From assembly GCA_965224465.1 (NCBI GenBank), contig OZ245049.1, positions 1,860,001-1,892,000 on the forward strand: 32,000 nucleotides of DNA. The letters run 5' to 3'. Positions 9,030 to 28,544 of the stretch are shown piece by piece. The stretch's first letter is position 1. Each line of letters starts with the position of its first letter. The notes below the pieces were generated by a model, which was given only the letters and a program-made list of their open reading frames with translations, was not told where the DNA came from and ran no database searches. The position numbers were made by a program, and so were the translations under genes. Source of the DNA: Flavobacteriaceae bacterium (GTDB taxonomy: Bacteria; Bacteroidota; Bacteroidia; Flavobacteriales; Flavobacteriaceae).

Positions 9030-9050
9030 AAAGAGTAGCCCCTCTTTTAA

Positions 9051-9088
9051 AAACAGCCATTTCGTAATTGAGATGGCTGTTTTTTTTT
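9051..9088 (+). terminator. Rho-independent terminator downstream of the protease gene and repeat array
   Basis: AAACAGCCAT ... ATGGCTGTTT 10-bp perfect stem (extendable with one mismatch) followed by T8. Confidence 0.7.
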
Positions 9089-9219: not shown

Positions 9220-9852
9220 ATGAAATCATATAAATACACCTTTTTAACACTTGTCCTACTAATGATTGTTAGCTGTGACAAAAACGACGATATAAGTACA
9301 GCAACTAATTCTTTTGAGAGCAACAATATCTCCTACGACACTCCAAATTGCTATATAGAATTCGATGAATTCACAGACAATAATGCAAGTTTCAATTTGT
9401 TTTTACTCAATGGACGCATGTTTGATAATGATGCCAATGTAAATGGCTCTTCTGGAGATTACTTATTTTCTTTAAACACCAGTAATTTTGTGTTTTACAA
9501 TATTCGTGCAATAGAAAACCCTAGCATTGAAACACCTCAATACCCCAATATTCAAACAGGGATCAATTATATAGGAAGCGACAATGATTCGGTAATTATA
9601 CATGGATTTAGTGTAAACCCTCTCAGCCCTAACTTCGACAGTAATGGCGTTAATTACGGAATGCCCAACGAAGGATCAGGAGTCGTTCACGAGCCTTCAC
9701 CTGGAAGTACAAACACAATCACTATAAACACCTACAGTGTGGATCTTATGGCAAAAACAGGACAGATAGATCTAGATTATCAATTTTTAGATGCCCTTGA
9801 AAATACGATTACAGGACACTATGAAGGAAGTTTTGGTGTCTTCCAAGATTAA
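9220..9852 (+). CDS. Lipoprotein, unknown function
   Basis: Signal peptide with lipobox-like LLMIVSC followed by DKNDD. Asn/Ser-rich. No family recognised. Confidence 0.65.
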   Translation: MKSYKYTFLTLVLLMIVSCDKNDDISTATNSFESNNISYDTPNCYIEFDEFTDNNASFNLFLLNGRMFDNDANVNGSSGDYLFSLNTSNFVFYNIRAIENPSIETPQYPNIQTGINYIGSDNDSVIIHGFSVNPLSPNFDSNGVNYGMPNEGSGVVHEPSPGSTNTITINTYSVDLMAKTGQIDLDYQFLDALENTITGHYEGSFGVFQD

Positions 9853-10262: not shown

Positions 10263-11963
10263 ATGAAATCAAGCATATTATACTTCGCTATTTTTATTTT
10301 CTCAAGCAGCAGTATTCTTTTTGCTCAAGGGAATTCAAAAAAACCAATTCACATCACTGGAAACATTGGGCTTTATTATGACATGTATGATTATTCTGAA
10401 GAAAACCACCCCACTTTTAGGGCTCGTTACCCAGACAACCTATTCCGATTAAATGCAAATGCTACAATCCAATTAGGAAAACACTTTTCCATTCCGTTTG
10501 GCATCAATATTACCAATCAAAAAACACTGTATAATTTACCGAACCTACCCAACGAGAACATCATAGATTATGTACAAAACCCAAAAAACAATATCAGTAT
10601 TCATCCAAAGTACAAATGGGTACAAGCACATATTGGTACACACACACCAGACTATTCACAATTCACTACTGGAGACATCAATATATTTGGAGCAGGAATT
10701 GACATCAATCCAGGGAAATTTATTCTATCCTTCAATTACGGTATATCGCAACGCGCCATAGAACAGGACAGTTTCTTAAATACGGTCGGAGCTTATAAAC
10801 AAACGCTCATGGCAACTAGAATAGGAATCGGAAAAATAGAAGGCTCCAAATTCACCATTAACATTGTAAAAATTAAAGATGACATCACTTCCTTAGTCAC
10901 CATTCCTACGGGAATAAAACCCATAGAAGGCATCACCTTTGCCCCACTTATTGAAGTTAAATTTGGCAAAAAAATATTTTTCGCTACAGAAACAGCAGCA
11001 TCTATTTTTACAAGTAACCTCCTGAACACTTTTGACATTGACAGTGATATTGTAACATCTGTAAAGGACATCATTACTATAAACGCCTCTAGTAAAGGCG
11101 ATTTTTCCCACACATCATCCTTGGAGTGGAAATCAAAAAAATTCACACTTGGAGGTGAAGTAAAATACATAGGCCCTGGGTTTGTACCTGCCGGATTTAG
11201 GAACATTGAGAAAGACATCTTAGATTATAAAATAAAATCCTCCATAAAACTATTCAAAGGAAAAACAAACATCAGCGGAATGTTTGGAATCCGAACAAAC
11301 AACCTTAAGAACACCACCTTACAAAGTACGAAAAGAGTGATAAGTACTATCAATATTTTTACAAAACTCACCAAGAAATTATCTTTAAATGCTAGCTATT
11401 CTAATTTTGGCTTTAATAATAATGAGATTAACAATGTACTTCGTATCGAGATGATTAACAACACGTACAACATATCTCCTTCTTACAAATTTAAGACTTC
11501 TAGCATCAGCCATTTGATACGGTTAAATTGGAACAAAAACGACTTTGATCAATTTGATACTGGCAGCGCCTCTTTTGTGAGTTCTGAATCAGAAAGTTAC
11601 GGAATAAACTACAACCTGTTTTTCAAAAACTTTCCTCTAAATATTAATTTAATGGGACTTCATTTAGACAATCAAACACCCGCTACTACTTTCAATATGA
11701 AAAACTACACCGCTTCTTTTTCTTATAAATTATTTAATAAAAAAATAAAACCTTCCCTTATATTTAATCTCGCCAAGATCTCAAAACCGCCATTTACAAC
11801 AGACAAAAGATTTAGCAGCAAATTTAAATTAACCTATAAAATAAACAAAAAACTACAATTCAAATTCGCTTATAAACTCAACAAATACACATACGGAACA
11901 TCACGTCCAAATGCATTAACAAAAGAACACAGGCTACAGTTTTCGCTATTAAAAAGATTCTAA
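10263..11963 (+). CDS. Predicted outer-membrane beta-barrel protein, unknown family
   Basis: Signal peptide (…SSILFAQ), alternating-hydrophobicity Tyr/Asn/Gly-rich segments throughout, and a C-terminal aromatic residue (…SLLKRF) typical of an OMP beta-signal. Confidence 0.6.
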   Translation: MKSSILYFAIFIFSSSSILFAQGNSKKPIHITGNIGLYYDMYDYSEENHPTFRARYPDNLFRLNANATIQLGKHFSIPFGINITNQKTLYNLPNLPNENIIDYVQNPKNNISIHPKYKWVQAHIGTHTPDYSQFTTGDINIFGAGIDINPGKFILSFNYGISQRAIEQDSFLNTVGAYKQTLMATRIGIGKIEGSKFTINIVKIKDDITSLVTIPTGIKPIEGITFAPLIEVKFGKKIFFATETAASIFTSNLLNTFDIDSDIVTSVKDIITINASSKGDFSHTSSLEWKSKKFTLGGEVKYIGPGFVPAGFRNIEKDILDYKIKSSIKLFKGKTNISGMFGIRTNNLKNTTLQSTKRVISTINIFTKLTKKLSLNASYSNFGFNNNEINNVLRIEMINNTYNISPSYKFKTSSISHLIRLNWNKNDFDQFDTGSASFVSSESESYGINYNLFFKNFPLNINLMGLHLDNQTPATTFNMKNYTASFSYKLFNKKIKPSLIFNLAKISKPPFTTDKRFSSKFKLTYKINKKLQFKFAYKLNKYTYGTSRPNALTKEHRLQFSLLKRF

Positions 11964-11966
11964 ATC

Positions 11967-12245
11967 ATGAAAAAAAAACAACTACTTCTTGTGAGTCTGT
12001 TATTGTATTACATAACCGCTCATACACAAATACACCTAAACTTACATATAGATGATGCTTATAATCCAGCTGTATTTGAATGGACCGATAGAAGCGACTT
12101 AACCGTTGTAATTGTTAGAAAAAACAATGTAGACCTCCAAAAATTAACCTTAGGAACTAAGACGTTTTTAGCAGATAAAGCAATTCCTTACAATGCAAAC
12201 ATAGAAGAACACAAAAAAAAATTAACCCTATTAACATTAAACTAA
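11967..12245 (+). CDS. Small secreted protein, paralog of the N-terminal domain of the downstream giant protein
   Basis: Signal peptide. IHLNLHIDDAYNPAVFEWTDRSDL / TKTFLADKAIPYNANI aligns with IQISLNVDSNPTPELSEWANRNNL / TVTFLADEIIPYNAINF of the 1891-aa protein. Starts 3 nt after the upstream stop. Confidence 0.6.
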   Translation: MKKKQLLLVSLLLYYITAHTQIHLNLHIDDAYNPAVFEWTDRSDLTVVIVRKNNVDLQKLTLGTKTFLADKAIPYNANIEEHKKKLTLLTLN

Positions 12246-12251
12246 TTAGTT

Positions 12252-15200
12252 ATGAAAAGAACACTTCTCCTCCTATTAATATTTGGCTTTTTTTCTAGCC
12301 ATATTAGTGCTCAGATACAAATATCATTAAATGTAGATTCAAACCCTACTCCTGAATTATCAGAATGGGCAAACAGAAACAATTTAGCCATTTTTACAGT
12401 CACCAATACCGATCCAGATTGGGTGGTGGAATACATCTTAAAAGTAGAATTATACAAAGATGGGATTCTTATGTTGGAAACAAATAACAATGTAACTCCA
12501 CAAACACTAGAGATGGGTACTGTTACCTTTTTAGCGGATGAAATAATCCCATACAATGCAATTAATTTTACCAATAATAATTTCCAACAAGCCATCTTAC
12601 AAACGGGGCTATTACCTGCTGGAACCTATTCTTTTTGCGTTAGCATGCTCAAAAGCGATGATTATGCAGTCATTGCAACAGACACTCCAAATCCTGCATG
12701 TCAACCCATGTTAATTACAGATTATCAAATTCCCGAATTAATTATGCCAATAAGTGATGTTTCAATTTCTTCACTATTAGTACCTACTATTAATTTTACG
12801 TGGTCTCCTGTGACACCAGGACCAGACCCAAGTCATTTTTCTGTAGAATACCGCATCCTCGTATCAGAGATATTCAGCAATCAATCATCTGCCAGTCAGG
12901 CATTTCATGTAAACACAGGACTGATAGACGAAGAAGGGCTAACAAGCACGCAATTTATGTGGCCTTCCGATTTAGAAGCTCCAGATGATTTGACAAACTA
13001 TGTATGGAGTGTACAAGCCATCAATACCAATAACAGTTTGCCTATTTTCCAAACAAACAACGGCTTCTCTTCCATTGAAACCTTTACTATAACACCGGCA
13101 AACAATGTGGACGTAGTTGACTGTGAATGTGATGTTGCCAACTTAACACAACCAACTGTAGCTATAATTCAATCTGATTCCATTAATAATCCAAGGAAAT
13201 TAAAGCTAACAAACATACCTCAACTCAAAAACTACCTGATTAACTGCAACACGGTATTTAATGCAAATCCCGCCGATTATACCATAGACATGAGTATTAA
13301 CTGGGACAATGCCCATGACGAGGAAGCAGTTCCTGATGGAGCTACTGTTTTTGAGCATGAATTCAATGCCACCAGTCATGAAATACCTGAAGAAATTTGC
13401 ATCAACTACACCATATACCCAGTATCTACAGGAATTAGTGGTGCACAATGCGAAAACGAAATATGTATAGAGACACCACAGGCATTTTTAGACTTAAACT
13501 TTAGCAATACGCCCACTGCAATTGTAGCGGTTGGAGACACAATAAAAGCTGGATATAATCACGAATTCAACATTCTTGTCTCCCAAGTATCCATAGACAG
13601 TACCAATAATAAAATTACAGGAAAAGGAAACGTTTTTGTAAAATGGCTAGGCGCGAGAGTGGCTGTTCAATTTAATGAAATCACCCTTGACACCACCAGA
13701 AACTTACTTACAGGAAAAATACTTGGAGAATCATACCCTGCTCCTGCTCCAGTATACCCACAAGCTTGGGGAGAAGAAATAATTGCCAATAACAATACAG
13801 CAAATACGACTGCAAACAACATAGCAAACTGGGGAAACAATACTGTTGCTGATGTTATTAATTGGACAAACAGTACGTCTGGAAAAATAGTAACCTGGGT
13901 AAACAACACCGCGGGAACATCGATAAACAGTCCTACAATTGACCCACAAGCACCTATTCCTACAGGCCCATTGACAGATAACACAACACCTGTAAAATTT
14001 CCTTTAGGAGTTAATTTCGCAAACGGAGACCAATTGGCAATCACAGAGATGGTATTTAGACCCAACCTCTCAGAATTTAATCTTGTAGTTGCAAAAAACA
14101 CACCTCCTAGTTGGCAAGCTCCGGGAGAGCCAGCACAACTTATTGGCTTCCTTGCCCGAAATACTAAATTTCACCCAAACAGTGTAGAAACACCTCCTGA
14201 AAGACTAGAGCTTGTAGAAGATGTAAACATTGGAAACATGAACAACAAAATTACTTTTACATTTATAAGTCCCGCAAACTCACCTAATGGATGTTATATT
14301 GAATGGGATGACGATGGGTTTTCACAATTTGGAATAGAACTAGAAAGTTCATTCACAAGAGAATGGTTAATTCCTTCTCCAGATGATGGAACACGATCTA
14401 AAGCAACTTTTGTAAGTACCGTTCAGAACTGGGATGATTTAGTACTGACTGGAAATTTACAAAAATCAGAAATTGTAGACTCCCAAGCCATGACCATTTT
14501 TGCAGGAAATATTTCCTTGGACTTGTCGGATACCATCAACCCTACTAATTTACAATCGGCTTCTGACTTCCCATCCAACTATGCAGGTGATAAAACCATG
14601 CTTTTTAGAGGATTTCACATGGAAGAATTAACCGCAGAAATGCCAGATTGCTGGCAAACAAATAGCAATGGCGTTCCTACTATTTCTATCTACGACATGA
14701 TTATTAACGATACAGGACTTACCATGGTAGCTGAAGCAGTAAATGTAGCAGCTTTTAGAGGGGCAAATGTAGCCGATTTAATTGCAAGTATAGACACTAT
14801 TCATATTGATATCCGAAGCAGTTCCTTTCACGATGCCTATATTAAAGGGAAAATAGGCTTACCTGTAAGCAAAGCAGATTCTATACAAAACCCATTAAAG
14901 TATCACGCCTTATTCACAACAGCGACTCAACCTCCTTCGTTTCAATTGACCATTGAACCCACAGGTCCTATAAAAGCAACTTTATTAAAAGGAGTAATGG
15001 AGCTAGACCCGACTTCAAATATTGTAGCCAATGTTTCTAAAAACCCGAATTACAGCCCTGGAAATAGCAATAGTAAAAAGTACAAAAAAACATTTCATGC
15101 TACTTTAAACGGGAATTTTGTTTGGGATGATGTCAAGTTAGGTCCCGTTAAACATGTGAATATGAACCTTGGGTTTCAAGGAATAGAAATGAATTACAAC

Positions 15201-17927
15201 AATGTTCAACCCAATAATAAATTCAATTTTAATGCAGGAACATGGGCATTTGCAAGTCCTCAGAAATTTTTATCTAACTTTCCTGTTACCATAGAAAATA
15301 TAGCATTTAATCAGAAATCTACAACAGGAAACCAACTCTTGCATGGAGATCTGAACTTTGATGTGATTTTTAATCTATCCGAAGACATTGGAGGACAAAC
15401 AAAATTAGCTGTAGAAATTGCGATAGAAGAAAACCCAAACGGTACAGGTACTGGTAAATTCAAACCCAAATACATAAGTACAAGGATCAATGATATTTCC
15501 ATATACGCGCACTTACCAGCAGTTTCAATAGATGGAACTTTGGAGTTCAGAAACGACCATCCTGTTTATGGAAATGGATTTAAAGGAGAATTAGAAGCGG
15601 CATTTAAAACACCTAATATTGGCATCAGAGCCTTGGCAGAATTTGGAAACACAAATTACCTTAATAACGGAGCAACCTACCGCTATTGGAGAATAGAAGC
15701 AGCAGCAAAATTCCAACCAGGAATACCCTTTTTACCCGGTATTGCATTTTACGGTTTCGGAGGAGGCGCCTTTAGTAATATGGAAGGTTCTCTTGTTGAA
15801 AATCCAACAGACCCAGACACACCGCCCTACTACAGTTTTGAACCAAAAAAAGGGAATTTAGGTTTTCAAGTAGAAGCCACGATTGGTGCAGCAGCAAAAG
15901 TAGATTCTTTTAATGCAGATGTAGGATTGAACGGACAATTTTCAAGCTCTAATGGTTTAATTAATATTGGTTTTACAGGAGATTTTTACATAGGAGGACC
16001 ACTAACACCTCAACACGAAAGAGAAAAAGCACAAATTAAAGGAAGTGTTATCGCTGATTACAATTTCCCTGACAAGCATTTTTTTATGAATGTTGATGCT
16101 ACTATTAACACCGATAAGATAAAAACTTTACCTGGACAACCTGTAAAATTAAACGTAGATATTAACGGAAGTAACAACCGTTGGCATTTTAAATTTGGAG
16201 AGCCAGACGCCTTAAATACGGTGTCAATATTTAATTTTGAACTCTATGAATATTTAATGTTTGGAAATAACATCTCAGCTCCTAGCGGTTTTACAAATAC
16301 TTTTAAAAGTGGATGGGCTTCGGTATTTGACGGAGACCAACCAGGAATCCCAGTAGGATCTGGAGTTAATAACAATTCTGCATTAGGAAAAGGATTTGCT
16401 TTTGGTACAGGTTTCAAATTTGACAAAGAAATTGACTTTCATATTTGGAATGGCTATAATGTAGAAATAGATGTTGCCGCTGGCGCCGAATTAAATTTAA
16501 GTATGATGCAAAAAACAGGCGCCAATTGTGACAACCCTTCTAAACAATTCGGACTCAATGGATGGAGAGCCAATGGTTCTATAGGTTTTTACGGTGCTGT
16601 AGCAGCTGGAGTAAGTAAAGGATCCAAATATTGGCCTTTAATGGACATTAGAGCTGGAGGGTGGTTAGAAGGAAAATTTGTAAACCCTACCTATGTGGCA
16701 GGAGAAATTCGAGGACAAGCAGTTGCTGGACACTTTACGACTAAAATTCATTTTCTAGGAGATTGTAAAAAAGGATGCGGTGCATATCACCTTAAACATT
16801 CCAGACAATGGACATCCTGTAAACACCCTCAGCATCATTATCTAATTGATAAAAGTTTCCAAAAAGACTTTGAGTGGGGCGCTAGTTGTTTAAATAATGC
16901 TGGATACTCAGAACCTGACAACACCAGTAATGATACCTCATTTACACAAGGAGATGCTGCTGAAGATCAATCTCAAAAACTAATAAAATACATACATCCA
17001 ACACCTAGTAACATGATTTATAATTTCCCGGTGACACAGCCTATTTCCATAAAATTTGGACTGAACCCTGAAGAAGTATTTGATGTTGCTGAACAACAAC
17101 AATCTGGAACAATTTTAACAAGAACGTTTAAGTTGGAACGTACCGTATCTCTATTTATAGACAATGCAGACGACGGAAATTACACAAATATATCCGCAAG
17201 CCTTTCTACAGGAAGACGACTATTAAAAAGCACAAATAACATAGGAGAAGAGCTGTATACAGAAACCTCAAACACAATCACTGCAACAGCACAAATGTCT
17301 ACAGCGCTCTTAAGCTCAGAACCAAGTAGTACAGGAACAGCACAGGTAGTAAATATGCAATTAGCCCCAAACCCAACTACTGGTGCAGGAATATTTTCAA
17401 ACAGCCAACTCTTATCAGCTACGAAACAAGAACAAGGAATATTAAGTTTCCCTTCTACATCTACTGGCAGCTCTACTGGCAGCGGATCTTCTAGCGGAAG
17501 CGGCTCCTCTGGCTCTGCGAGTTATGATGATTTACCAGCACCAACACCTCCTGTTATAAATCATTTATCACTAAATAAAAGTTACAAAATAATAGTAGTT
17601 GCTACATTAAAAGAATACAGCAACGAGCAATGGGTGGATGCAAAAAAATCAAATGGTAGCAGTGTTACTGAAACAAAAACAAAGTTTTTCAGAACAGGCC
17701 CTAAAAAAGCCATAAACAATGCCGTATCACGTAAAGAAAACGACTTCAATAAAGAGACTCCAAATGGCAAAAAAACAGCTAGTTCAAGGAAAGCTCTTCC
17801 CGCAAGAAAAACAAGAACCCGTCCTAAAAACAAAGAAATTCTCGAAAAAAATAAGTCGTTTAGAGGAAAGAAAAAAGACAGAAAACGCTCAAAAAAGAAC
17901 GTAAAAACTAATTCCAAAAGAAACTAA
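12252..17927 (+). CDS. Giant secreted protein (1891 aa), unknown function
   Basis: Signal peptide (…SSHISAQ) and an uninterrupted 5.7-kb ORF. Carries a Ser/Gly linker and a Lys/Arg-rich C-terminal tail. I recognised no T9SS C-terminal sorting domain. Confidence 0.75.
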   Translation: MKRTLLLLLIFGFFSSHISAQIQISLNVDSNPTPELSEWANRNNLAIFTVTNTDPDWVVEYILKVELYKDGILMLETNNNVTPQTLEMGTVTFLADEIIPYNAINFTNNNFQQAILQTGLLPAGTYSFCVSMLKSDDYAVIATDTPNPACQPMLITDYQIPELIMPISDVSISSLLVPTINFTWSPVTPGPDPSHFSVEYRILVSEIFSNQSSASQAFHVNTGLIDEEGLTSTQFMWPSDLEAPDDLTNYVWSVQAINTNNSLPIFQTNNGFSSIETFTITPANNVDVVDCECDVANLTQPTVAIIQSDSINNPRKLKLTNIPQLKNYLINCNTVFNANPADYTIDMSINWDNAHDEEAVPDGATVFEHEFNATSHEIPEEICINYTIYPVSTGISGAQCENEICIETPQAFLDLNFSNTPTAIVAVGDTIKAGYNHEFNILVSQVSIDSTNNKITGKGNVFVKWLGARVAVQFNEITLDTTRNLLTGKILGESYPAPAPVYPQAWGEEIIANNNTANTTANNIANWGNNTVADVINWTNSTSGKIVTWVNNTAGTSINSPTIDPQAPIPTGPLTDNTTPVKFPLGVNFANGDQLAITEMVFRPNLSEFNLVVAKNTPPSWQAPGEPAQLIGFLARNTKFHPNSVETPPERLELVEDVNIGNMNNKITFTFISPANSPNGCYIEWDDDGFSQFGIELESSFTREWLIPSPDDGTRSKATFVSTVQNWDDLVLTGNLQKSEIVDSQAMTIFAGNISLDLSDTINPTNLQSASDFPSNYAGDKTMLFRGFHMEELTAEMPDCWQTNSNGVPTISIYDMIINDTGLTMVAEAVNVAAFRGANVADLIASIDTIHIDIRSSSFHDAYIKGKIGLPVSKADSIQNPLKYHALFTTATQPPSFQLTIEPTGPIKATLLKGVMELDPTSNIVANVSKNPNYSPGNSNSKKYKKTFHATLNGNFVWDDVKLGPVKHVNMNLGFQGIEMNYNNVQPNNKFNFNAGTWAFASPQKFLSNFPVTIENIAFNQKSTTGNQLLHGDLNFDVIFNLSEDIGGQTKLAVEIAIEENPNGTGTGKFKPKYISTRINDISIYAHLPAVSIDGTLEFRNDHPVYGNGFKGELEAAFKTPNIGIRALAEFGNTNYLNNGATYRYWRIEAAAKFQPGIPFLPGIAFYGFGGGAFSNMEGSLVENPTDPDTPPYYSFEPKKGNLGFQVEATIGAAAKVDSFNADVGLNGQFSSSNGLINIGFTGDFYIGGPLTPQHEREKAQIKGSVIADYNFPDKHFFMNVDATINTDKIKTLPGQPVKLNVDINGSNNRWHFKFGEPDALNTVSIFNFELYEYLMFGNNISAPSGFTNTFKSGWASVFDGDQPGIPVGSGVNNNSALGKGFAFGTGFKFDKEIDFHIWNGYNVEIDVAAGAELNLSMMQKTGANCDNPSKQFGLNGWRANGSIGFYGAVAAGVSKGSKYWPLMDIRAGGWLEGKFVNPTYVAGEIRGQAVAGHFTTKIHFLGDCKKGCGAYHLKHSRQWTSCKHPQHHYLIDKSFQKDFEWGASCLNNAGYSEPDNTSNDTSFTQGDAAEDQSQKLIKYIHPTPSNMIYNFPVTQPISIKFGLNPEEVFDVAEQQQSGTILTRTFKLERTVSLFIDNADDGNYTNISASLSTGRRLLKSTNNIGEELYTETSNTITATAQMSTALLSSEPSSTGTAQVVNMQLAPNPTTGAGIFSNSQLLSATKQEQGILSFPSTSTGSSTGSGSSSGSGSSGSASYDDLPAPTPPVINHLSLNKSYKIIVVATLKEYSNEQWVDAKKSNGSSVTETKTKFFRTGPKKAINNAVSRKENDFNKETPNGKKTASSRKALPARKTRTRPKNKEILEKNKSFRGKKKDRKRSKKNVKTNSKRN

Positions 17928-17929
17928 TT

Positions 17930-20032
17930 ATGAAAATGACATTCTATAAACACTTGTTAGCACTCCTTTCATTCTTACTATTTACACCAGTCATCCATGC
18001 ACAAAAAAAGGATAAAACGCCCCTTAGTTATATCAATACTATAGGGAGATACACCAAAGAAAAAGAAGTTCAAATTATCTATTTTCCAGACAAAAAAAAC
18101 ACTTTAAAAAGGGGAATCAATTATGGTTTTATTATTGAACGTGCAGAATTAAACGATCACATATTTCATGAAAAAGACATCCAATACAAAGAGCTAAAAA
18201 AAGTATTTCCTTACACAGATTCTCAATGGAAAAAAGAACGTAACAACCTCAAAGGAGTCGCCTTAGAAAATCTAATATTAGCCAAAGATTTTTACGACAA
18301 TATTGACAAAGAATCTGAAGGAGCTTTTTCGTTCGACAAGGGAATAAAAGAATTAAAGGAACAAAAAAGTAAAGAAGATTTTCAGTATTTATTTTTTGTT
18401 ATGAATGCAATCAAAGACAATGGCGTTGCAAAAGCTCTGGGGCTTTCATTTACAGACAAAACAGTTCAAGAAAACAAAAGATATGCGTACAGAATTCTAT
18501 TGGTAAATCCCTCAAAACATTATAAAACTATAGGAATAGCAACCCTTGTAGAGACTAAAAACGCAGCAACTTCCGCAGAGAGAAAAATATTTACAAAAAC
18601 GGGGGATCAAAAACTCACATTTATATGGGAAGAGAACGATGATATTTCTGCCGTATATGTAGAGAAAAAAAATGCACTAACAGGTGTTTTTGAAGTTTTA
18701 AATAAAGCGCCACTGCTAAGAACATCGACAGCATCAACAAGAAACAGTTATACAGATAAAAACTTAACAAATTATACCACATACGAATACCGTTTTTATG
18801 GATCCAATGCCTTTGGAGAAAAAATATATTTTGGAAAAGCAACAGGAATGCCACGTGATTTAACAGCTCCAAAAAAACCTACCCTAGAGTCCGTAAAACA
18901 CATACGTCCCGAAGAGGTTGAATTAACATGGAAAGTACCGACACCTTTGGAAGGAGATTTAAAAGGTTTTGTAGTGGCTAGAGGGTATAAAAATCGTGGA
19001 AATTTTCAATTATTACACGGCAATTTATTACCGAAAAACACCACCCGCTATATCGACAAAACTTTCCATAGAGAAAAACCAAACTACTATGTGATACAAG
19101 CCATAGATACCAGTGGAAATATAAGTTCCTCCAACCCCTATTTTGTAACCTTAATAGATTCAATCCCTCCAAAAAAACCAGCTTTTATTACAGGCACAAT
19201 AGACTCTTTAGGAATTGTTACATTGGAGTTGGAACTAAATAAAGAAAAGGACCTCATGGGCTATCGATTGTTTAGATCTAATAGTGAAAAACATGAATTT
19301 TCAGTTATTTACGAAGGATTTCAAGAAAAAGACACCCTTTACAGAAAAGCACAAACAACATTTAAAGACACCGTAACTATCAACTCATTAACACCTTATA
19401 TTTATTACAAGATAAAAGCGTTAGATTTTAATTTCAACCAATCCGAGTATTCCACAGTGCTTAAAGTTAAACGCCCTGATATAATCCCTCCTACAACACC
19501 CGTATTTAAGAACATAAAAACAGGAACAAATACCATTGAACTCGCTTATGTCTTAAGTAACAGTGAAGATGTAGAAACTCAGTACCTATACAGAAAACTA
19601 TCCATAGAAGAAGCATGGTCTATTTTAACAGTTCTCGAAAAAAACAGCAGCTCATATATTGATAAAAACTTAAAACAAGGAGTCCGCTATTACTATTCCT
19701 TAAGAGCAAAAGACGACAGTGGTTTGTTTTCTAAATATGCCAATCCTATTTATGGAAAACCCTATGATGACGGCGTAAGACCACCTGTAAAAAACCTTAG
19801 TATTTCCAAAGAAGAACAAAAAATAACACTCGTATGGGAATATGAAGACCTAAATAAAAACACCTATTTTGTAATCTACAAGAAAAACAAAAAAGGCAAC
19901 CTCGTACAATACAAGAGTATCCAAAATCTACAGTACAACGAAACTGTTTCTGAAAAAAAGAGCAGTTATGCAATAAAAGCATATACTAAAGATGGAGGAC
20001 AATCTAAAATAAGCGATATTGTGAGCCATTAA
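17930..20032 (+). CDS. Secreted protein with multiple FN3-like repeats
   Basis: Signal peptide (…TPVIHAQ). Roughly 90-100-aa modules are separated by proline hinges (APKKPTL, PPKKPAF, PPTTPVF, RPPVKNL). Each has W/Y-core patterns such as LTWKV…YYVIQAIDTSGN, YYKIKALDFNFN and YYYSLRAKDDSG. Starts 2 nt after the upstream stop. Confidence 0.7.
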   Translation: MKMTFYKHLLALLSFLLFTPVIHAQKKDKTPLSYINTIGRYTKEKEVQIIYFPDKKNTLKRGINYGFIIERAELNDHIFHEKDIQYKELKKVFPYTDSQWKKERNNLKGVALENLILAKDFYDNIDKESEGAFSFDKGIKELKEQKSKEDFQYLFFVMNAIKDNGVAKALGLSFTDKTVQENKRYAYRILLVNPSKHYKTIGIATLVETKNAATSAERKIFTKTGDQKLTFIWEENDDISAVYVEKKNALTGVFEVLNKAPLLRTSTASTRNSYTDKNLTNYTTYEYRFYGSNAFGEKIYFGKATGMPRDLTAPKKPTLESVKHIRPEEVELTWKVPTPLEGDLKGFVVARGYKNRGNFQLLHGNLLPKNTTRYIDKTFHREKPNYYVIQAIDTSGNISSSNPYFVTLIDSIPPKKPAFITGTIDSLGIVTLELELNKEKDLMGYRLFRSNSEKHEFSVIYEGFQEKDTLYRKAQTTFKDTVTINSLTPYIYYKIKALDFNFNQSEYSTVLKVKRPDIIPPTTPVFKNIKTGTNTIELAYVLSNSEDVETQYLYRKLSIEEAWSILTVLEKNSSSYIDKNLKQGVRYYYSLRAKDDSGLFSKYANPIYGKPYDDGVRPPVKNLSISKEEQKITLVWEYEDLNKNTYFVIYKKNKKGNLVQYKSIQNLQYNETVSEKKSSYAIKAYTKDGGQSKISDIVSH

Positions 20033-20046
20033 CACCTAAACCTAAC

Positions 20047-22914
20047 GTGACTGGATTAAGATTTCATATCATTCTTTTGATTACTTCATTTATTTGGAGT
20101 TTCTCACATGCGCAAGAATTCACCAATTACACAACAAAAAATGGGCTTCCATCCAATCATATCTACACGATCACACAAGATAGTGAAGGTTTTGTTTGGT
20201 TTCTTACCGATAAGGGGATGGTTAAATACAATGGTTCTGAATTTAAATTATTTAGCACAGCTAATGGCCTTCCTAACAATCATATATGGGAAGCAAAAAC
20301 AACTTCGGATCATAAAGTATGGTATTTAACCAAATCCAACCGGCTTGGATATATCTTAAAAGACAGCGTTTATTGTTTTTTTAATATAGAGAAAAAAATA
20401 ATGAACCCTATTTTCACCAATCAAGTAGGAGATAGTGTTTTTCCTGCTGGCCCAGAAAAAGAATACACATTATTGAATAAAAAATGGATTATTTCAAAAA
20501 AACAAACCTCCAATAACCCTCATTTTAATTATTTTATTCACCATCCAAATATCAGTCATGTTAGTTTTGATAACACCACAAGTAATGGAGGACAGCCTAT
20601 AACTTTCAACGTAAAAATATACAACCATCAAAATCAAATACTTAAAACATTTAAAATTTCAAAATCCATTCGAAGCAACTCAAAAAGAGGTCAATTAAAC
20701 GACAGCTTGTATGCTTGGGCATCTGATAGAGACTATATTATCCTTAACTTAAATACGTTAAAAACACATTCCTATAACTACAAAAAAAACCTAGGAATAG
20801 ACCGTGTAAAACATGCACGAATAAACAGCATAAATGATGAATTTCAACTTTCGGGAACAGGTTTGGTTACAAAATTAGACAAAAACTTTAAACCTAAAAG
20901 CCCTTACTTCTTTCCGGAAAACATACATGCCCATTTTGGACTTATTGATAAAAATAATACCATATGGTTGGCAACATTCTCTCAGGGAGTCTACAAAATG
21001 CCCCACAATAACAGTCTTATAAAATACCAATTAAGCACGGAAAAAACAGCATCAATCAATCGTGTAAACAACAAAATTATATGTAATATTCAAGGAAAGG
21101 GATTTTATAAATTTGATAAGAAAGAAAAACACTTCAAACCCTATATAAAAGACAACTCTTATTTATATAGTGCTACATATATTCCTGAATTAAATAGGGA
21201 ATATTACATCTCTGAAAACACAATTAAGAGCATCAATCCCAATCAAAAAAAAACCTCTTACCTCTTAAATAACACTAAAATATCACAACAAATACACTAT
21301 CATAAAGGGGAATTATTTAGTAACTATTCTTTTGGAATTCATAAAATAACGAACGATTCCCTTCTTATTAAAAAAAACTACAAACTAGCAGGCACCTACG
21401 CTTTAATCAGCATACAAGACCAACTTTTCATAGCCTCATCAACGGGCTTAAAATCACTTGTAAATGATGAAATAGTAGCTGTTGACTCCGCAAAAGAACT
21501 AGAGAACAAAACATTGGTTTCTTTTACCAAATTAAGTGATCAAAGTTTCCTTATTCATACAGATGGTTTTGGCTCCTATTATTTTGATCTACAACAGGTT
21601 TCACAACTTAAAAACTCAGTAGGTTTATCTGTCAAAAACGCAACAATGTCTAACGATTCTATTTGGATAGCCACCAATCAAGGCATCCAATTGTACTTAC
21701 AAAAAGAGAATCACTTTGAATTTATAAATAGCATCACTCAAAGTGATGGCTTGCCTTCAAACAACATTAACGCCGTTGTATCCTATAAAAACCTTTTGCT
21801 AGTGAGTAGTGAAAACGGTATTGCAATCGTTCCAAAAAACATTCAACGTACAACTGGGCTTGAAGCTCTTTATTTTAAAAGTATTCAATACAACCGTCAG
21901 CCTATCACCCCTAAATCAAATAGCTTTCTTTACCAGAGCAACAACAATCTTACTTTTGAAACAGCATCCATTAATTTTTTAAGAACCAGCACACATTTCG
22001 AATATAGCTATCGCCTAGAACCAATTCAAACATCATGGACAACAAGCAAATCAAATGTTATTAACTTCCACGATTTAAAACCCGAAAAATACACTCTTCA
22101 TATCAAAACTGGTACATTTCACAGCCGTCAAAAATTTAGTATCACCCCTCTTTGGTATCAGCAAACATTAATTAAAATAGGAATTGCAGGAATTATTATT
22201 GGACTCATAGTGGGACTTCTTTATTTTATTAGAGAAATAGAATTGTCAAAAAAAACAAAAAAAATTCAAAACCAAAAGAAAATGGCAGAGTTTGAACTCC
22301 ATGCCTTAAGATCACAAATGAATCCACATTTTGTTTTTAATTCTTTAAATGCCATTCAGTATTATATTACAAAAAACGACATCGATCAATCAGAAAAATA
22401 CTTAGTAAAATTTGCGCAACTTATTCGTATGTTCTTTGATTTCTCCAGCCAAAAAAACATTTCTATAAGCCAAGAAATGTCACTTTTAAGAAAATATCTA
22501 GAAATAGAAAAAATGCGTTTTGGAGATCATTTTCATTATAAGATAATCATAGACCCAACTATTGACATGGAAACAAAAATCCCCACTATGTTGTTACAAC
22601 CAATTGTTGAAAACTCGGTAAACCATGGTGTTTTCCACAACAACAGAAAAGGGACTGTTACAATAAAAGTTACGTACACTTCTAGAAATAACATTGTCAT
22701 CAGCATTAGCGACGATGGTGTCGGAATTAAAAAATCAAAAGAGATTCAAGAGAAATCATTGAAACAGCATGTTTCAAAATCAACACTTATTTTAGAAGAC
22801 AGAATTCTATTAATCAACAATTCAAAAGAGTGGCATATCAATTACGCTATAACAGACCTGTCAGACGGTATTAAAACGGGTACTGAAGTAACGCTCACTT
22901 TTATAAAAGAGTAA
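20047..22914 (+). CDS. Sensor histidine kinase: periplasmic two-component-regulator propeller repeats + Y_Y_Y domain + TM + LytS/YehU-type kinase core
   Basis: Repeated GLPSNHIYTITQDSEGFVWF-type propeller motifs. Y_Y_Y-like FEYSYRLEPIQTSWTT…LKPEKYTLHIK, TM IGIAGIIIGLIVGLLYFI, His_kinase motif LRSQMNPHFVFNSLNAI, and an HATPase region (ISDDGVGI). GTG start. Confidence 0.85.
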   Translation: MTGLRFHIILLITSFIWSFSHAQEFTNYTTKNGLPSNHIYTITQDSEGFVWFLTDKGMVKYNGSEFKLFSTANGLPNNHIWEAKTTSDHKVWYLTKSNRLGYILKDSVYCFFNIEKKIMNPIFTNQVGDSVFPAGPEKEYTLLNKKWIISKKQTSNNPHFNYFIHHPNISHVSFDNTTSNGGQPITFNVKIYNHQNQILKTFKISKSIRSNSKRGQLNDSLYAWASDRDYIILNLNTLKTHSYNYKKNLGIDRVKHARINSINDEFQLSGTGLVTKLDKNFKPKSPYFFPENIHAHFGLIDKNNTIWLATFSQGVYKMPHNNSLIKYQLSTEKTASINRVNNKIICNIQGKGFYKFDKKEKHFKPYIKDNSYLYSATYIPELNREYYISENTIKSINPNQKKTSYLLNNTKISQQIHYHKGELFSNYSFGIHKITNDSLLIKKNYKLAGTYALISIQDQLFIASSTGLKSLVNDEIVAVDSAKELENKTLVSFTKLSDQSFLIHTDGFGSYYFDLQQVSQLKNSVGLSVKNATMSNDSIWIATNQGIQLYLQKENHFEFINSITQSDGLPSNNINAVVSYKNLLLVSSENGIAIVPKNIQRTTGLEALYFKSIQYNRQPITPKSNSFLYQSNNNLTFETASINFLRTSTHFEYSYRLEPIQTSWTTSKSNVINFHDLKPEKYTLHIKTGTFHSRQKFSITPLWYQQTLIKIGIAGIIIGLIVGLLYFIREIELSKKTKKIQNQKKMAEFELHALRSQMNPHFVFNSLNAIQYYITKNDIDQSEKYLVKFAQLIRMFFDFSSQKNISISQEMSLLRKYLEIEKMRFGDHFHYKIIIDPTIDMETKIPTMLLQPIVENSVNHGVFHNNRKGTVTIKVTYTSRNNIVISISDDGVGIKKSKEIQEKSLKQHVSKSTLILEDRILLINNSKEWHINYAITDLSDGIKTGTEVTLTFIKE

Positions 22915-22958
22915 TCCTAGATCCCTCCTACTTTTAAAAAAACAACAAAGAAAAAAAC

Positions 22959-23696
22959 ATGAGACTAAAAGCTATATTAGTAGACGACGAAGAGAAAGCA
23001 CTGGAGGGATTAACCCTGAAAATTCAACGTTTTTTTCCGGAAATAGAAATCACACATCACATTCAAAACCCCAAAGAAGCCATAAAAATCATAAACACAT
23101 CACAACCAGATATTTTGTTTTTGGATGTAGAAATGCCCGTTCTTACAGGGTTTGATGTATTGGCAGCAATAGACAACCCAGATTTTGAAATCATATTTGT
23201 AACAGCATACAGCCAATATGCGATTCAAGCCATCCAACACTGTGCTATAGGATATGTAGTAAAGCCCATTGACAACGACGAATTAATTAAAGCAATTTCA
23301 AGTGGATTGTCTCAAATAGAATTTAAAAATGCACTCAACAAAAACAAAGCACTCCTAAATAATTTACGAAACCTCACCAATAAAACCATTGTAATTCCTG
23401 ACCAAAAAGGATTTTCCTTTATAAAGTCAGAAGAGATTATACGATTGGAAGGCGTAGACGGGTACACGCTAATTGTGCTGCAAAATGAGAAACCAATATT
23501 GAGTTCCTATAATATCGGGAAATTTAGAGACATGCTTCCTGAACTCCTATTTTACAGCATCCATAAATCTCACATTATCAACACAAATCATTTAAAAAAA
23601 TATTTAAACGAAGGATATGTTGAATTGACAAATTCTGATTCTGTGCCTGTCGCAAAAAGCAAACGTGTAGACTTCCTAAAACACTTAAAACTATAG
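22959..23696 (+). CDS. LytTR-family response regulator
   Basis: Receiver domain (ILVDDE … DILFLDVEMP) and a C-terminal LytTR DNA-binding domain (IIRLEGVDGYTLIV … IHKSHIIN). Confidence 0.9.
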   Translation: MRLKAILVDDEEKALEGLTLKIQRFFPEIEITHHIQNPKEAIKIINTSQPDILFLDVEMPVLTGFDVLAAIDNPDFEIIFVTAYSQYAIQAIQHCAIGYVVKPIDNDELIKAISSGLSQIEFKNALNKNKALLNNLRNLTNKTIVIPDQKGFSFIKSEEIIRLEGVDGYTLIVLQNEKPILSSYNIGKFRDMLPELLFYSIHKSHIINTNHLKKYLNEGYVELTNSDSVPVAKSKRVDFLKHLKL

Positions 23697-23968: not shown

Positions 23969-24253
23969 ATGGGAAGAAAAAAGCATGATAATGAGTTCAA
24001 GGTAATGATAGTAGAACTATTAAAGTCCGGAATGAAATCAAAACAGATTAGTACAGATTACGAGTTGGATGTAAGTATGATATCTCGCTGGAAGCGAGAA
24101 TACGAGATTAAATCGGGTGACTTTTCTAAAAAGAAAGAGTTAACCAATGATGAAGTGGAGCTAAAGGCGTTAAAAAAGGAACTTCGTAACGTAACTATGG
24201 AGCGTGATATATTAAAAAAGGCGGTAGGCATCTTTTCCAAGAGCGACAGATAA
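23969..24253 (+). CDS. IS3-family transposase OrfA (HTH)
   Basis: 94 aa with an HTH and a leucine-zipper-like C-terminus. Ends shortly after the A6G slippery site. Confidence 0.9.
   Translation: MGRKKHDNEFKVMIVELLKSGMKSKQISTDYELDVSMISRWKREYEIKSGDFSKKKELTNDEVELKALKKELRNVTMERDILKKAVGIFSKSDR
24214..24220 (+). promoter_or_regulatory. Programmed -1 ribosomal frameshift site (AAAAAAG) joining OrfA to OrfB
   Basis: AAAAAAG heptamer. Reading on in the -1 frame gives KKGGRHLFQERQIRYKFIFNNGVSFPVEKMCKSMRVSKNAYYHW, the conserved IS3 OrfB N-terminus. The orfB frame is -1 relative to orfA. Confidence 0.8.
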
Positions 24254-24300
24254 GGTATAAATTCATTTTTAATAATGGAGTATCCTTCCCTGTTGAAAAG

Positions 24301-25134
24301 ATGTGTAAATCCATGCGCGTTAGTAAAAACGCATATTATCACTGGGTAAACAATAACGGTTCCAGCGTACAGAATACTGCTAAAGTAGACTTGATGGATA
24401 GGATTACCTATCATTTTATCGAAAGTAAAGAGATCTATGGGAGTCATAGAATTCAAAAAGCATTGGAGCGAGAAGGAGTGTATTATTGCCGTTCTTACGT
24501 GGCGCTGTTGATGAAAGAGATGGGTCTGCGAAGTGTTCTGAAGAAGGCTTTTGTGGTAACTACAGACTCTAAACACGATTATCCTATTGCTAAAAATATA
24601 TTAAACAGAGAGTTTACCAGTTTGAAAATAGGAGATAAATGGGTGTCAGACATCACCTATATACGCGTAAATGATGATTGGAATTACTTAACCACGATAA
24701 TTGATTTAGCTGACAGAAAAGTGGCAGGATGGTCTTTAAGTGAGGACATGACCACCCAAAACACTATTGTAAAAGCGTGGATTGCGGCTAGAAGAACAAG
24801 AGCTATTAATCCAGGGTTTATCTTTCATTCAGACAGAGGAGTGCAATACGCATCTAATAAAATGACTGCTATTTTATATTTTAATCAGAAAATAACACAG
24901 AGCATGAGTAGAAAAGGTAATTGTTGGGATAATGCTGTTGCTGAGAGCTTTTTTAAATCCATAAAGTATGAGTGGCTCTATCGTTTCAAGTACATGTCAT
25001 ATCTGCAATTACACGAGTCGATAAATGAATATATCTCTTGGTACAATATCAAAAGATTACATTCAAGTTTAGGGTATTTATCACCGCTTGAAATGGAAAT
25101 AAAACTAAAAAAGGAAATTAAGAAAGTGGCTTAG
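24301..25134 (+). CDS. IS3-family transposase OrfB (DDE/rve integrase core), probably expressed as an OrfAB fusion from about 24220
   Basis: WVSDITYI…, HSDRGVQYAS, CWDNAVAESFF and YNIKRLHSSLGYLSP are motifs typical of the rve catalytic core. Confidence 0.9.
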   Translation: MCKSMRVSKNAYYHWVNNNGSSVQNTAKVDLMDRITYHFIESKEIYGSHRIQKALEREGVYYCRSYVALLMKEMGLRSVLKKAFVVTTDSKHDYPIAKNILNREFTSLKIGDKWVSDITYIRVNDDWNYLTTIIDLADRKVAGWSLSEDMTTQNTIVKAWIAARRTRAINPGFIFHSDRGVQYASNKMTAILYFNQKITQSMSRKGNCWDNAVAESFFKSIKYEWLYRFKYMSYLQLHESINEYISWYNIKRLHSSLGYLSPLEMEIKLKKEIKKVA

Positions 25135-27311: not shown

Positions 27312-28544
27312 ATGACAAAAGACGAGTTAGCCAACATTGAAAAAAAGGCATTGGATCAATTATTATCAGGAAAAAGTTTATTCGGAAAAGAAGGTGCCTT
27401 TGCTCCTTTAATGAAACAATTTCTTGAGAAAGCATTGGAAGCAGAAATGGAATCACACCTTAGTGAAGAGGAACGTTCTAAAGGGAATAAACGTAATGGA
27501 AAGGGCAAAAAGACTGTTAAAACTAGTATTGGTAGTTTTGAAATAAGCACGCCAGCGGATAGAAATAGTAGTTTCGAGCCTGTTCTGATAAAAAAGCGTC
27601 AAACCATTTTAGCAGATAATTTATCAGATAAGATCATTGGATTATACGGCCTAGGAATGAGCTTACGCGATATTTCTGGTCATATAAAAGAGATGTATGA
27701 TACAGATATATCACACACTGTTTTAAGTCAAATTACAGATAAGATCATACCAGATATAAAACAATGGCAAAGTCGTCCAATAGAACAGATGTACTGCATT
27801 GTTTGGCTTGACGCTATGCATTACAAGGTAAAAGTAGACGGTAAAATACAACACAAAGCACTTTACAATGTTTTAGGAGTAAATAAAGAAGGGATCAAAG
27901 AGGTTTTAGGAATGTATATTTCAGAAAGTGAAGGCGCAAATTTTTGGCTTCAAGTATTGACAGACCTTAATAACAGAGGGCTTAAGGATATCCTAATTGC
28001 CTGTACAGACAACTTAAAAGGGTTTTCAGAAGCTATCTTGAGTGTATTTCCTAAAACACAAATTCAAAAGTGTATTGTTCATCAAATTCGTAATTCTTTA
28101 AAGTATATAGCTTCCAAAGACCAAAAAGAATTTATTCGAGATTTAAAGCTTGTTTACAAGGCTGTTAATAAGGATATTGCTGAGTTGGAGTTATTGAAAT
28201 TAGAAGAAAAATGGGGAGAAAAATACCCTGTAGTTTTAGAAAGTTGGAACCGTAATTGGGAAGAGTTATCTCAGTTTTTTCAGTATACAGAACCTATCAG
28301 AAAAATAATTTACACAACAAATGCAGTAGAAGGTTTTCATAGACAGGTAAGAAAAGTAACTAAAACAAAAGGGGCTTTTACCAGTGATATGGCACTATTA
28401 AAGCTTGTTTACTTAGCAACAAAAAATATCGAAAAAAAATGGACAAACCCTTTACATAATTGGTGCTTGACAATTCAACAATTATATATTAAATTTGAAG
28501 ATCGAATAACGTTGGATTTACATAAAAACGGAAGCAATTCGTGA
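27312..28544 (+). CDS. IS256-family (mutator-type) transposase
   Basis: 410 aa with the characteristic MYCIVWLDAMHYKVK, ACTDNLKGF and IQKCIVHQIRNSLKY motifs. Confidence 0.9.
   Translation: MTKDELANIEKKALDQLLSGKSLFGKEGAFAPLMKQFLEKALEAEMESHLSEEERSKGNKRNGKGKKTVKTSIGSFEISTPADRNSSFEPVLIKKRQTILADNLSDKIIGLYGLGMSLRDISGHIKEMYDTDISHTVLSQITDKIIPDIKQWQSRPIEQMYCIVWLDAMHYKVKVDGKIQHKALYNVLGVNKEGIKEVLGMYISESEGANFWLQVLTDLNNRGLKDILIACTDNLKGFSEAILSVFPKTQIQKCIVHQIRNSLKYIASKDQKEFIRDLKLVYKAVNKDIAELELLKLEEKWGEKYPVVLESWNRNWEELSQFFQYTEPIRKIIYTTNAVEGFHRQVRKVTKTKGAFTSDMALLKLVYLATKNIEKKWTNPLHNWCLTIQQLYIKFEDRITLDLHKNGSNS

Follow-up and report, generated by a model that had tools for sequence, protein, structure and literature searches.

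A conserved gene triad of a predicted outer-membrane barrel, a giant TANFOR-related protein and a fibronectin type III protein, and its possible part in export or surface anchoring

By what route might a protein of 1891 residues, with a predicted signal peptide and no recognisable type IX secretion system (T9SS) sorting domain, cross the outer membrane of a flavobacterium, or be held there? The question is raised by six adjoining genes on the forward strand of a 32,000-nucleotide stretch of DNA from a Flavobacteriaceae bacterium (GenBank assembly GCA_965224465.1, contig OZ245049.1, positions 1,860,001 to 1,892,000), which we call the window and in whose coordinates all features of the locus are given. 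The original prediction for this locus saw an uncharacterised cell-envelope cluster, perhaps a dedicated surface-assembly or secretion module, and the finding presented here is more general than that prediction could see. Three of the genes, encoding a barrel of 566 residues (10263-11963), the giant protein (12252-17927) and a 700-residue protein with fibronectin type III (FN3) domains (17930-20032), are a real triad that is conserved far beyond the Flavobacteriia, across the Fibrobacterota-Chlorobiota-Bacteroidota (FCB) group. The giant, which is predicted to be secreted, is a toxin-less distant relative of the TANFOR proteins, a Bacteroidetes class of polymorphic toxins that carry Sec signals and were described without a known route of export (Jana, Salomon & Bosis 2020; PMC7073777). 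We tentatively propose that the barrel serves to export or to anchor the giant.

The triad and its conservation

Relatives of the giant were sought in one genome per GTDB species, and the best 80 loci were inspected for synteny, their neighbouring genes being recognised by BLASTP of six-frame open reading frames (ORFs) against the proteins of the window. At least 218 GTDB species have such a relative, and the 80 loci come from Flavobacteriaceae, Saprospiraceae, Chitinophagaceae, Sphingobacteriia, Bacteroidales/Marinilabiliales, Balneolales and Ignavibacteriota. Where enough flank was present, the FN3 gene lies directly 3' of the giant gene at 65 of 67 loci, and the barrel gene adjoins that of the giant at 42 of 47, upstream in 23 cases and downstream in 19. 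A second, independent scan, of metagenome contigs, took as its query the more distant TANFOR-positive clade described below; barrel and FN3 genes are both present at 33 of its 36 loci, in the order barrel-giant-FN3 at 28, giant-barrel-FN3 at four and giant-FN3-barrel at one. Because the order of the genes is permuted and the triad is nonetheless kept, their association outlasts rearrangement, and since the same genes adjoin one another in about 160 unrelated contigs the cluster is not due to chance. The order barrel-giant-FN3 is found in Arenibacter, Lutibacter, a Prolixibacteraceae metagenome-assembled genome (MAG) and one further MAG, in Nonlabens together with kinase and regulator genes, and in Polaribacter atrinae with an extra 417-residue gene and with the kinase and regulator genes further on. 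At two metagenome loci (L155, 7941-18272; L160, 4767-14916) the giant is split into two ORFs that lie 1.4-3.3 kb apart, which could reflect an insertion or an artefact of assembly. The original prediction had envisaged four genes that stay together, including a small one between barrel and giant; this holds for barrel, giant and FN3 genes, but not for the small gene, to which we return below.

For the 566-residue product, AlphaFold2, run on an alignment of 49 sequences, predicts a barrel of about 26 strands (predicted local distance difference test, pLDDT, 85.6; predicted template modelling score, pTM, 0.70), and in the model a plug, POTRA domains and a periplasmic domain are all absent. The last residue is F, so that the model bears out the earlier description of a beta-barrel with an aromatic end and confirms, as a prediction of structure, a large plug-less outer-membrane barrel. 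The closest fold in PDB is that of MtrB (6r2q_B; E 3e-9, TMq 0.56), and there are matches at lower template modelling (TM) scores to the FimD/PapC ushers (TM 0.3-0.4), to Deinococcus SlpA and to TonB-dependent transporters. MtrB sheathes a partner protein, and barrels of this size class, such as MtrB, LptD and the ushers, hold or pass a protein. At the level of sequence the barrel matches no model in Pfam or NCBIfam at E<=1, and searches of PDB with the single sequence and with the family profile were both empty; its homologs fall into 162 clusters, one of which carries a precomputed match to PF11854.

The product of the third gene is a multi-FN3 protein, as had been supposed: Pfam places an fn3 domain at residues 316-404, and a profile built from 20 orthologs matches the FN3 arrays of titin over residues ~270-690. 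The array follows a unique conserved domain of about 200 residues at the N-terminus. In all of the first four products of the cluster the sequence opens with a basic residue and continues through a hydrophobic stretch to A/T/H-Q, features which we read by eye as predicted signal peptides, in keeping with the earlier reading, and inspection of the same four sequences found no lipobox cysteine.

The triad is followed in the window by genes for a sensor histidine kinase of 955 residues (20047-22914, with a GTG start) and a response regulator of 245 residues (22959-23696). According to Pfam, the sensor part of the kinase is a periplasmic Reg_prop propeller (E 8e-9) with a Y_Y_Y domain (5.4e-5), and its catalytic part combines a LytS-type His_kinase domain (PF06580, 1.4e-22) with HATPase_c (1.3e-5); the regulator consists of Response_reg (3e-20) and LytTR (1.2e-10) domains. 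This is the make-up by which a LytS/LytTR two-component system is recognised, His_kinase with HATPase_c in one protein and REC with LytTR in the other, and it agrees with the assignment first made. A kinase and a regulator gene are found on the same strand, either upstream or downstream of the triad, at 22 of the 36 genome loci with enough flank, in several phyla. In P. atrinae (L005, 17967-19404) and Lutibacter sp. A64 (L007, 20442-21698), genes for prolipoprotein diacylglyceryl transferase (LGT) and for a MopE-like copper-binding protein stand between the FN3 gene and the kinase gene; both are absent from the window, where the gap between FN3 and kinase genes is 14 nt (20033-20046).

The giant protein, its TANFOR relatives and the N-terminal module

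The giant has no match in Pfam or NCBIfam at E<=1, Por_Secre_tail included, and PDB yielded nothing by sequence to either the single protein or the family profile. Its close homologs form 36 clusters, none with a precomputed Pfam domain, whose members come from Polaribacter, Nonlabens, Arenibacter, a Mucilaginibacter and MAGs, and a second homology search, seeded with the alignment of the giant, added one sequence. The nearest relatives are those of the Flavobacteriaceae MAG NORP167 (84% identity) and of P. atrinae (66%). From the alignment of these homologs and its conservation profile we derive a map of the protein. It begins, after the signal peptide, with an N-terminal module (residues ~22-285; 12315-13106) that appears to comprise a TANFOR-like Ig domain and then an FN3-like domain; a Cys-containing region and an Asn-rich linker lead to the conserved, predicted all-beta core at residues ~577-1490, which is the region that defines the family (13980-16718 for residues ~577-1489). 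After the core come a linker of low complexity, then a C-terminal domain of about 60 residues (1758-1817; 17523-17702), which is conserved and FN3-like by sequence pattern, and finally a clade-specific tail, which here, in the Polaribacter-like clade, comprises 74 residues rich in K and R (39% K+R; 17703-17924). In the longer homologs, residue 289 is followed by an insertion of 300-560 residues. The C-terminal domain, which has no Pfam match, occupies the place of the toxin domains in relatives; its residues Y1758, L1761, P1762, Y1778, L1786, E1788, W1794, T1815 and G1816 are invariant or nearly so from the Flavobacteriia through to Mucilaginibacter. An NKEIL.KNK motif and the ending ...KRN of the tail are kept only in the Polaribacter-like clade, and the tails of other clades are short and hydrophobic, for example ...GASTF.

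An exhaustive phmmer search with the core, made against representatives of protein clusters at 50% identity, matched 1056 of them at E<=1e-3, the number being 848 at E<=1e-10; the matches commonly cover query positions ~18-930 and lie in proteins of 1400-3959 residues. Distant members of the family are decorated with fn3, PKD, SusE-like and Big_5 domains, all of them Ig-like and no other kind, which may be taken as signs of an extracellular location. The AlphaFold2 model of residues 560-1650 is all-beta, composed of long amphipathic hairpins, at a pLDDT of 75.9 and a pTM of 0.44. Foldseek aligned it in PDB with LptD, as the top match, SlpA and ApoB100, with significant E-values and TM scores of 0.1-0.25, and found nothing meaningful among the viral models of BFVD. 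Because these are low-TM matches to generic beta-sheets, no fold was assigned, and we treat the modelled core as unmatched to known folds. The Kyte-Doolittle hydropathy of the hydrophobic face is 1.41 in the core strands and 1.24 in those of the barrel, that is, their amphipathicity is comparable; an amphipathic core as modelled would fit a sheet that faces the membrane, a hydrophobic groove or a sandwich, without discriminating among them.

The kinship with TANFOR proteins emerges from the family as a whole. The NCBIfam model TIGR02542 (T_forsyth_147) describes an N-terminal domain of about 145 residues and has a curated cut-off of 67 bits. One family member, P0253, bears the JGI name 'TANFOR domain-containing protein', and its residues 27-150 match this model (E 2.9e-12, 46.7 bits), which is likewise matched by 7 of 23 distant representatives of the giant family and, N-terminally and at 35-39 bits, by three of the four triad-encoded giants that were tested; the scores of these relatives, 35-47 bits, are all below the cut-off. 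Residues 1-300 of the window giant in turn match the N-terminus of P0253 (BLASTP, E 5e-10) in an alignment that spans the TANFOR region 27-150, and hhalign pairs the clade of the window with the TANFOR-positive clade at a probability of 100% (E 3e-215) over 1502 columns, the N-terminal module being included at high confidence. Since TIGR02542 misses both the window giant and the modules of its clade (nine related N-terminal modules gave no match at E<=10), we regard the giant as a TANFOR relative at the level of the superfamily, and not as a member by the curated model. The original prediction could assign these proteins to no characterised family; this is upheld by the empty sequence searches for barrel and giant, but the family of the giant does include TANFOR proteins that match TIGR02542.

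The published TANFOR neighbourhoods can be compared with the triad. Fn3 (COG3401) is strongly enriched in them, and Supplemental Data 1 of the same paper lists FN3 proteins of 660-690 residues downstream of TANFOR genes as well as unannotated signal-peptide proteins of 548-593 residues directly upstream of many, in Salibacter, Dyadobacter, Chitinophaga (toxin-bearing proteins included) and Tannerella (PMC7073777); examples of these upstream proteins are WP_044218632.1, WP_151166344.1 and WP_046825218.1. In Chitinophaga pinensis the TANFOR protein bears a deaminase toxin. This layout matches that of barrel, giant and FN3 genes. In the giant itself, Pfam and NCBIfam reveal no C-terminal toxin domain, and the slot 3' of its gene, where an immunity gene would be expected, is taken by the FN3 gene. 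To judge from its sequence, then, the giant fits best among the TANFOR-related giants, as a variant that has no toxin, with barrel and FN3 partners that had previously gone unremarked. At the distant locus of the homolog P0035 (L004, 1096-2762), the barrel gene is immediately preceded by a RadC gene and a SUKH/SMI1-type immunity-like gene, a setting that may point to a connection with polymorphic toxins in that lineage.

The N-terminal module also occurs apart from the giant. The 92-residue ORF between barrel and giant genes (11967-12245) has no Pfam or NCBIfam match at E<=1 and no relative in PDB by sequence, and its product matches residues 13-103 of the giant (E 3e-11) with an internal deletion of 28 residues. 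Its slot is held in the closest relatives by a gene of 412 residues (MAG NORP167, L009) or 417 residues (P. atrinae, L005), homologous to residues 1-306 of the giant, and because of this we take the ORF to be what decay has left of a free-standing paralog of the N-terminal module, and not a conserved component. It is thus the paralog of the giant that it had been taken for, but no fourth member of the system. In clades where the barrel gene is downstream, a module-like gene of about 300 residues stands 3' of it at 12 of 24 loci. At the Ignavibacteriota-type loci the module is fused to the N-terminus of the barrel in an ORF of 876-960 residues, and this was so in 12 of 12; the N-terminus of the fused ORF matches the module of the giant at E 1e-5 to 3e-12, and its C-terminus matches the barrel profile at an hhalign probability of 99.3%. 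A splitting of the giant was ruled out as the source of the stand-alone genes, given that most giants retain their own N-terminal module, and the barrel-associated copy, whether stand-alone or fused, is thus an extra one. The fusion argues that the N-terminal module may work physically with the barrel.

Export or anchoring, and the alternatives

Our essential contention, which we infer from gene order, domain fusion and fold, is that a dedicated barrel-dependent system, two-partner-like in its logic, may export or anchor the giant; we give it a probability of roughly 0.45. The giant would reach the periplasm by Sec export, and there its N-terminal module, with the TANFOR-like Ig and FN3-like domains, would dock onto the dedicated barrel or inside it. 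The latter would then allow the remainder of the giant through to the cell surface, or would hold it there. The FN3 protein could be an obligatory accessory, either a periplasmic chaperone or adaptor or a partner at the surface, and the propeller-LytS kinase and the LytTR regulator would control expression. Some relatives carry C-terminal polymorphic toxins on the same scaffold; because the window giant ends in a small FN3-like domain and a basic tail only, it is more likely to be a surface structure or adhesin than a toxin. A wider claim would be that barrel, TANFOR-like module and FN3 protein constitute a previously unrecognised export or display pathway of the FCB group for giant Sec-exported proteins, independent of both T9SS and Omp85 and serving TANFOR toxins too, and this we think conceivable though rather unlikely.

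Several observations weigh against export or anchoring by the barrel. TIGR02542 does not match the window giant, either at E<=1 over its full length or at E<=10 for residues 1-300, and for the published upstream proteins, length and signal peptide are the only grounds for taking them to be barrels. Five genome loci have giant and FN3 genes and no barrel gene within ~10 kb; four of them (L053, L055, L057, L074) are assigned to Balneolales or Chitinophagaceae, and the fifth (L003) is that of Mucilaginibacter, where the layout is giant-FN3. The barrel may be encoded elsewhere in these genomes, or may be dispensable. (The neighbours at L057 include genes for an M61 peptidase and a TonB-dependent receptor.) The two-component system accompanies only 6 of 36 metagenome loci, so that its association with the triad is frequent among genomes but not universal. 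The likeness to two-partner secretion is one of function only, since the barrel is not of the Omp85 family and has no POTRA domains. The strands of the core are long and strongly amphipathic, like those of a membrane barrel or a lipid-binding sheet, and its fold matches are LptD, ApoB and SlpA only. Finally, barrels of the outer membrane normally have their N-terminus on the periplasmic side, and for this reason the fusion of module and barrel suits a periplasmic assembly equally well.

Such an assembly, docked by the module under the barrel, is the main rival. The complex would lie in the periplasm or the outer membrane and serve lipid or other hydrophobic cargo as a conduit or scaffold, in the manner of AsmA/TamB or of LptD-LptA, with the sheet of the giant in the periplasm or inserted in the membrane. 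The top matches of the core to LptD and ApoB100, strands as amphipathic as those of the barrel, the position of the Ignavibacteriota module at the normally periplasmic end of the barrel, and a giant in which Pfam and NCBIfam detect no surface sorting signal would all be in keeping with this. However, the TM scores of those matches, 0.1-0.25, amount to no real fold match, and Pfam matches to AsmA, TamB/DUF490 and LptD are absent. The N-terminus of the giant resembles a signal peptide of the cleavable kind, Q being at +1 (AQ, then Q), and not an inner-membrane anchor. The PKD, SusE, Big_5 and fn3 decorations of family members also speak against a conduit, as do the nuclease toxins included in the TANFOR class, which must leave the cell (PMC7073777). 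On balance we consider the conduit unlikely.

The remaining alternatives, export by T9SS, a second barrel and an active toxin, are each less likely. Export by T9SS is what Jana et al. themselves speculated for TANFOR proteins; they report that T9SS is found in >95% of TANFOR-encoding genomes and that its substrates are enriched nearby (PMC7073777). A TANFOR protein of T. forsythia has been seen in vesicle proteomes (PMC10682907), and we found no later paper, in the literature searched, that settles the export route. On this hypothesis the giant would be a non-canonical T9SS substrate, and the barrel merely its anchor or partner, as PorP/SprF is for SprB. The original prediction had remarked on the missing T9SS sorting domain, and with good reason: neither Pfam nor NCBIfam detects a C-terminal domain (CTD) of type A or type B in the giant or in the longer homologs P0024, P0006, P0028 and P0018, and ordinary T9SS cargo was ruled out on these grounds. 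A UniRef label on the Arenibacter homolog P0024, truncated to 'Por secretion system C-te...', could not be reproduced. In all 36 close homologs nothing but a short tail follows the conserved FN3-like domain, the barrel is much larger than PorP/SprF and has no PorP_SprF match, and the constant neighbours of the giant are barrel and FN3 genes and not T9SS parts, which together make T9SS export improbable.

Could the giant itself be an outer-membrane protein, its core forming a very large barrel as in SprA, so that two barrels and the FN3 partner make up a pore or translocon for other cargo? The core has some 28-30 long amphipathic strands with short turns between them, nearly all of its Foldseek matches are outer-membrane barrels (LptD, SlpA, OccK, BtuB, and SprA at E 0.02), and many homologs have an aromatic last residue. 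Yet the superposition is poor, at TM 0.1-0.25 against 0.5-0.56 for the true barrel on MtrB, the pTM of the core is only 0.44, and the core is followed by a long disordered linker, a further domain and the basic tail of the clade, which is unlike a C-terminal beta-signal; we hold this to be very improbable. That the window giant acts as a TANFOR-class polymorphic toxin is the least credible of all, for despite homology to TANFOR-positive proteins over its whole length it has no toxin domain that Pfam or NCBIfam can detect, its C-terminus is conserved across phyla and not polymorphic, and the next gene is always the FN3 gene and not an immunity gene.

If barrel-dependent export or anchoring is correct, the triad would be a candidate for the missing route of TANFOR-type proteins. 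In the prevailing view, Bacteroidota possess a single widespread two-step route by which large proteins reach the surface, namely T9SS, and a role in export would add a new outer-membrane pathway of secretion or display. The constant pairing of barrel and giant, together with the natural fusion of module and barrel, turns this into a concrete and testable proposal. If the triad is instead a periplasmic complex with a lipid-handling or structural role, it would still be a new conserved machine of the envelope, the two largest parts of which have neither a Pfam or NCBIfam model nor a solved structure by sequence. The toxin-less version is found in cultivable marine Flavobacteriia, relatives of Polaribacter, Nonlabens, Arenibacter and Lutibacter, which may ease genetics.

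Surroundings of the cluster and comparison with known systems

The six ORFs are separated by gaps of 3, 6, 2, 14 and 44 nt, and the ORF list agrees exactly with the coordinates and gaps from which one or two operons had been suggested. A scan for sigma-70 promoters and a search for the TAnnTTTG motif gave nothing above chance, and no operon boundaries were obtained. The sole strong terminator is a terminator-like hairpin upstream of the cluster (9049-9084), and Rfam and tRNA scans found no RNA genes in the window. Between this hairpin and the barrel gene, 410 nt 5' of the latter, lies a gene for a predicted lipoprotein of 210 residues (9220-9852; lipobox ...IVSC), with no Pfam or NCBIfam match and no homolog at any related locus. 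Further upstream are housekeeping genes, for a ComEC-like protein, a fatty-acid hydroxylase, LpxB, SurE and a tail-specific protease, and because their order is that of Lutibacter we take the locus to be chromosomal and vertically inherited in this lineage. The guanine-plus-cytosine (GC) content is even across the cluster. Downstream the window is rich in mobile elements: directly 3' of the response-regulator gene there is an insertion sequence of the IS3 family (23969-25134), with orfA (23969-24253; HTH_Tnp_1) and orfB (24301-25134; rve/HTH_21), a transposase of the IS256/Mutator family lies at 27312-28544 (PF00872, E 5e-98), and GC content is lower, 0.24-0.29, at 28-31 kb.

Among characterised systems, no confident match to SprB/T9SS adhesins, TamB/AsmA, Omp85/two-partner secretion or ushers was found in Pfam, NCBIfam or PDB, as the original prediction anticipated. 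Chaperone-usher systems employ a 24-strand usher with a plug and with N- and C-terminal domains, served by a PapD-like chaperone; an usher was ruled out here, for the modelled barrel has about 26 strands and lacks a plug, and Pfam finds neither an Usher nor a PapD match. A conduit for electrons of the Mtr type was likewise rejected, as the haem motif CxxCH occurs in none of the six products. The window barrel shares with MtrB of MtrCAB (PDB 6r2q) a 26-strand, plug-less form, and MtrB encloses a partner protein; the two differ in that their sequences are 9% identical and the locus has no cytochrome genes. LptD/LptE and the AsmA/TamB-type proteins have in common with the giant their long amphipathic antiparallel beta-sheets, and the barrel of LptD is also large, with 26 strands, but the core of the giant reaches only TM 0.1-0.25, there is no family match, no inner-membrane anchor and no Lpt or Tam gene nearby; TamB/AsmA in particular was set aside for want of an AsmA or DUF490 match and for an N-terminus that reads as a signal peptide. 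SprB with PorP/SprF resembles the triad as a giant Bacteroidota surface protein encoded beside an outer-membrane barrel gene, and differs from it by the SprB repeats, by a CTD and by the PorP_SprF family, of none of which the proteins of the window show a trace.

Two-partner secretion provides the analogy on which our proposal is modelled. Its type Vb transporter is an Omp85-family barrel with 16 strands and POTRA domains, and its passenger carries a TPS domain and the beta-helical repeats of FHA. Membership of this family was ruled out, the barrel having no Pfam match to ShlB or Bac_surface_Ag, no POTRA domain and about 26 strands instead of 16; the window giant has neither a TPS domain nor FHA beta-helix repeats (Pfam; Foldseek found no beta-helix), and an FN3 protein is obligatory in addition. 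What is shared with FhaC/FHA and CdiB/CdiA is that a dedicated barrel gene adjoins the gene of a giant beta-rich exoprotein, that the N-terminal module of the giant seems tied to the barrel, and that relatives carry variable C-terminal toxin ends. With respect to the TANFOR proteins, the window giant differs in having no toxin, immunity gene or TIGR02542 match, and the barrel, the ~900-residue core and the two-component link are not described in the TANFOR paper (PMC7073777), but it is similarly a large Bacteroidota protein with a Sec signal, in whose neighbourhood Fn3 genes are enriched.

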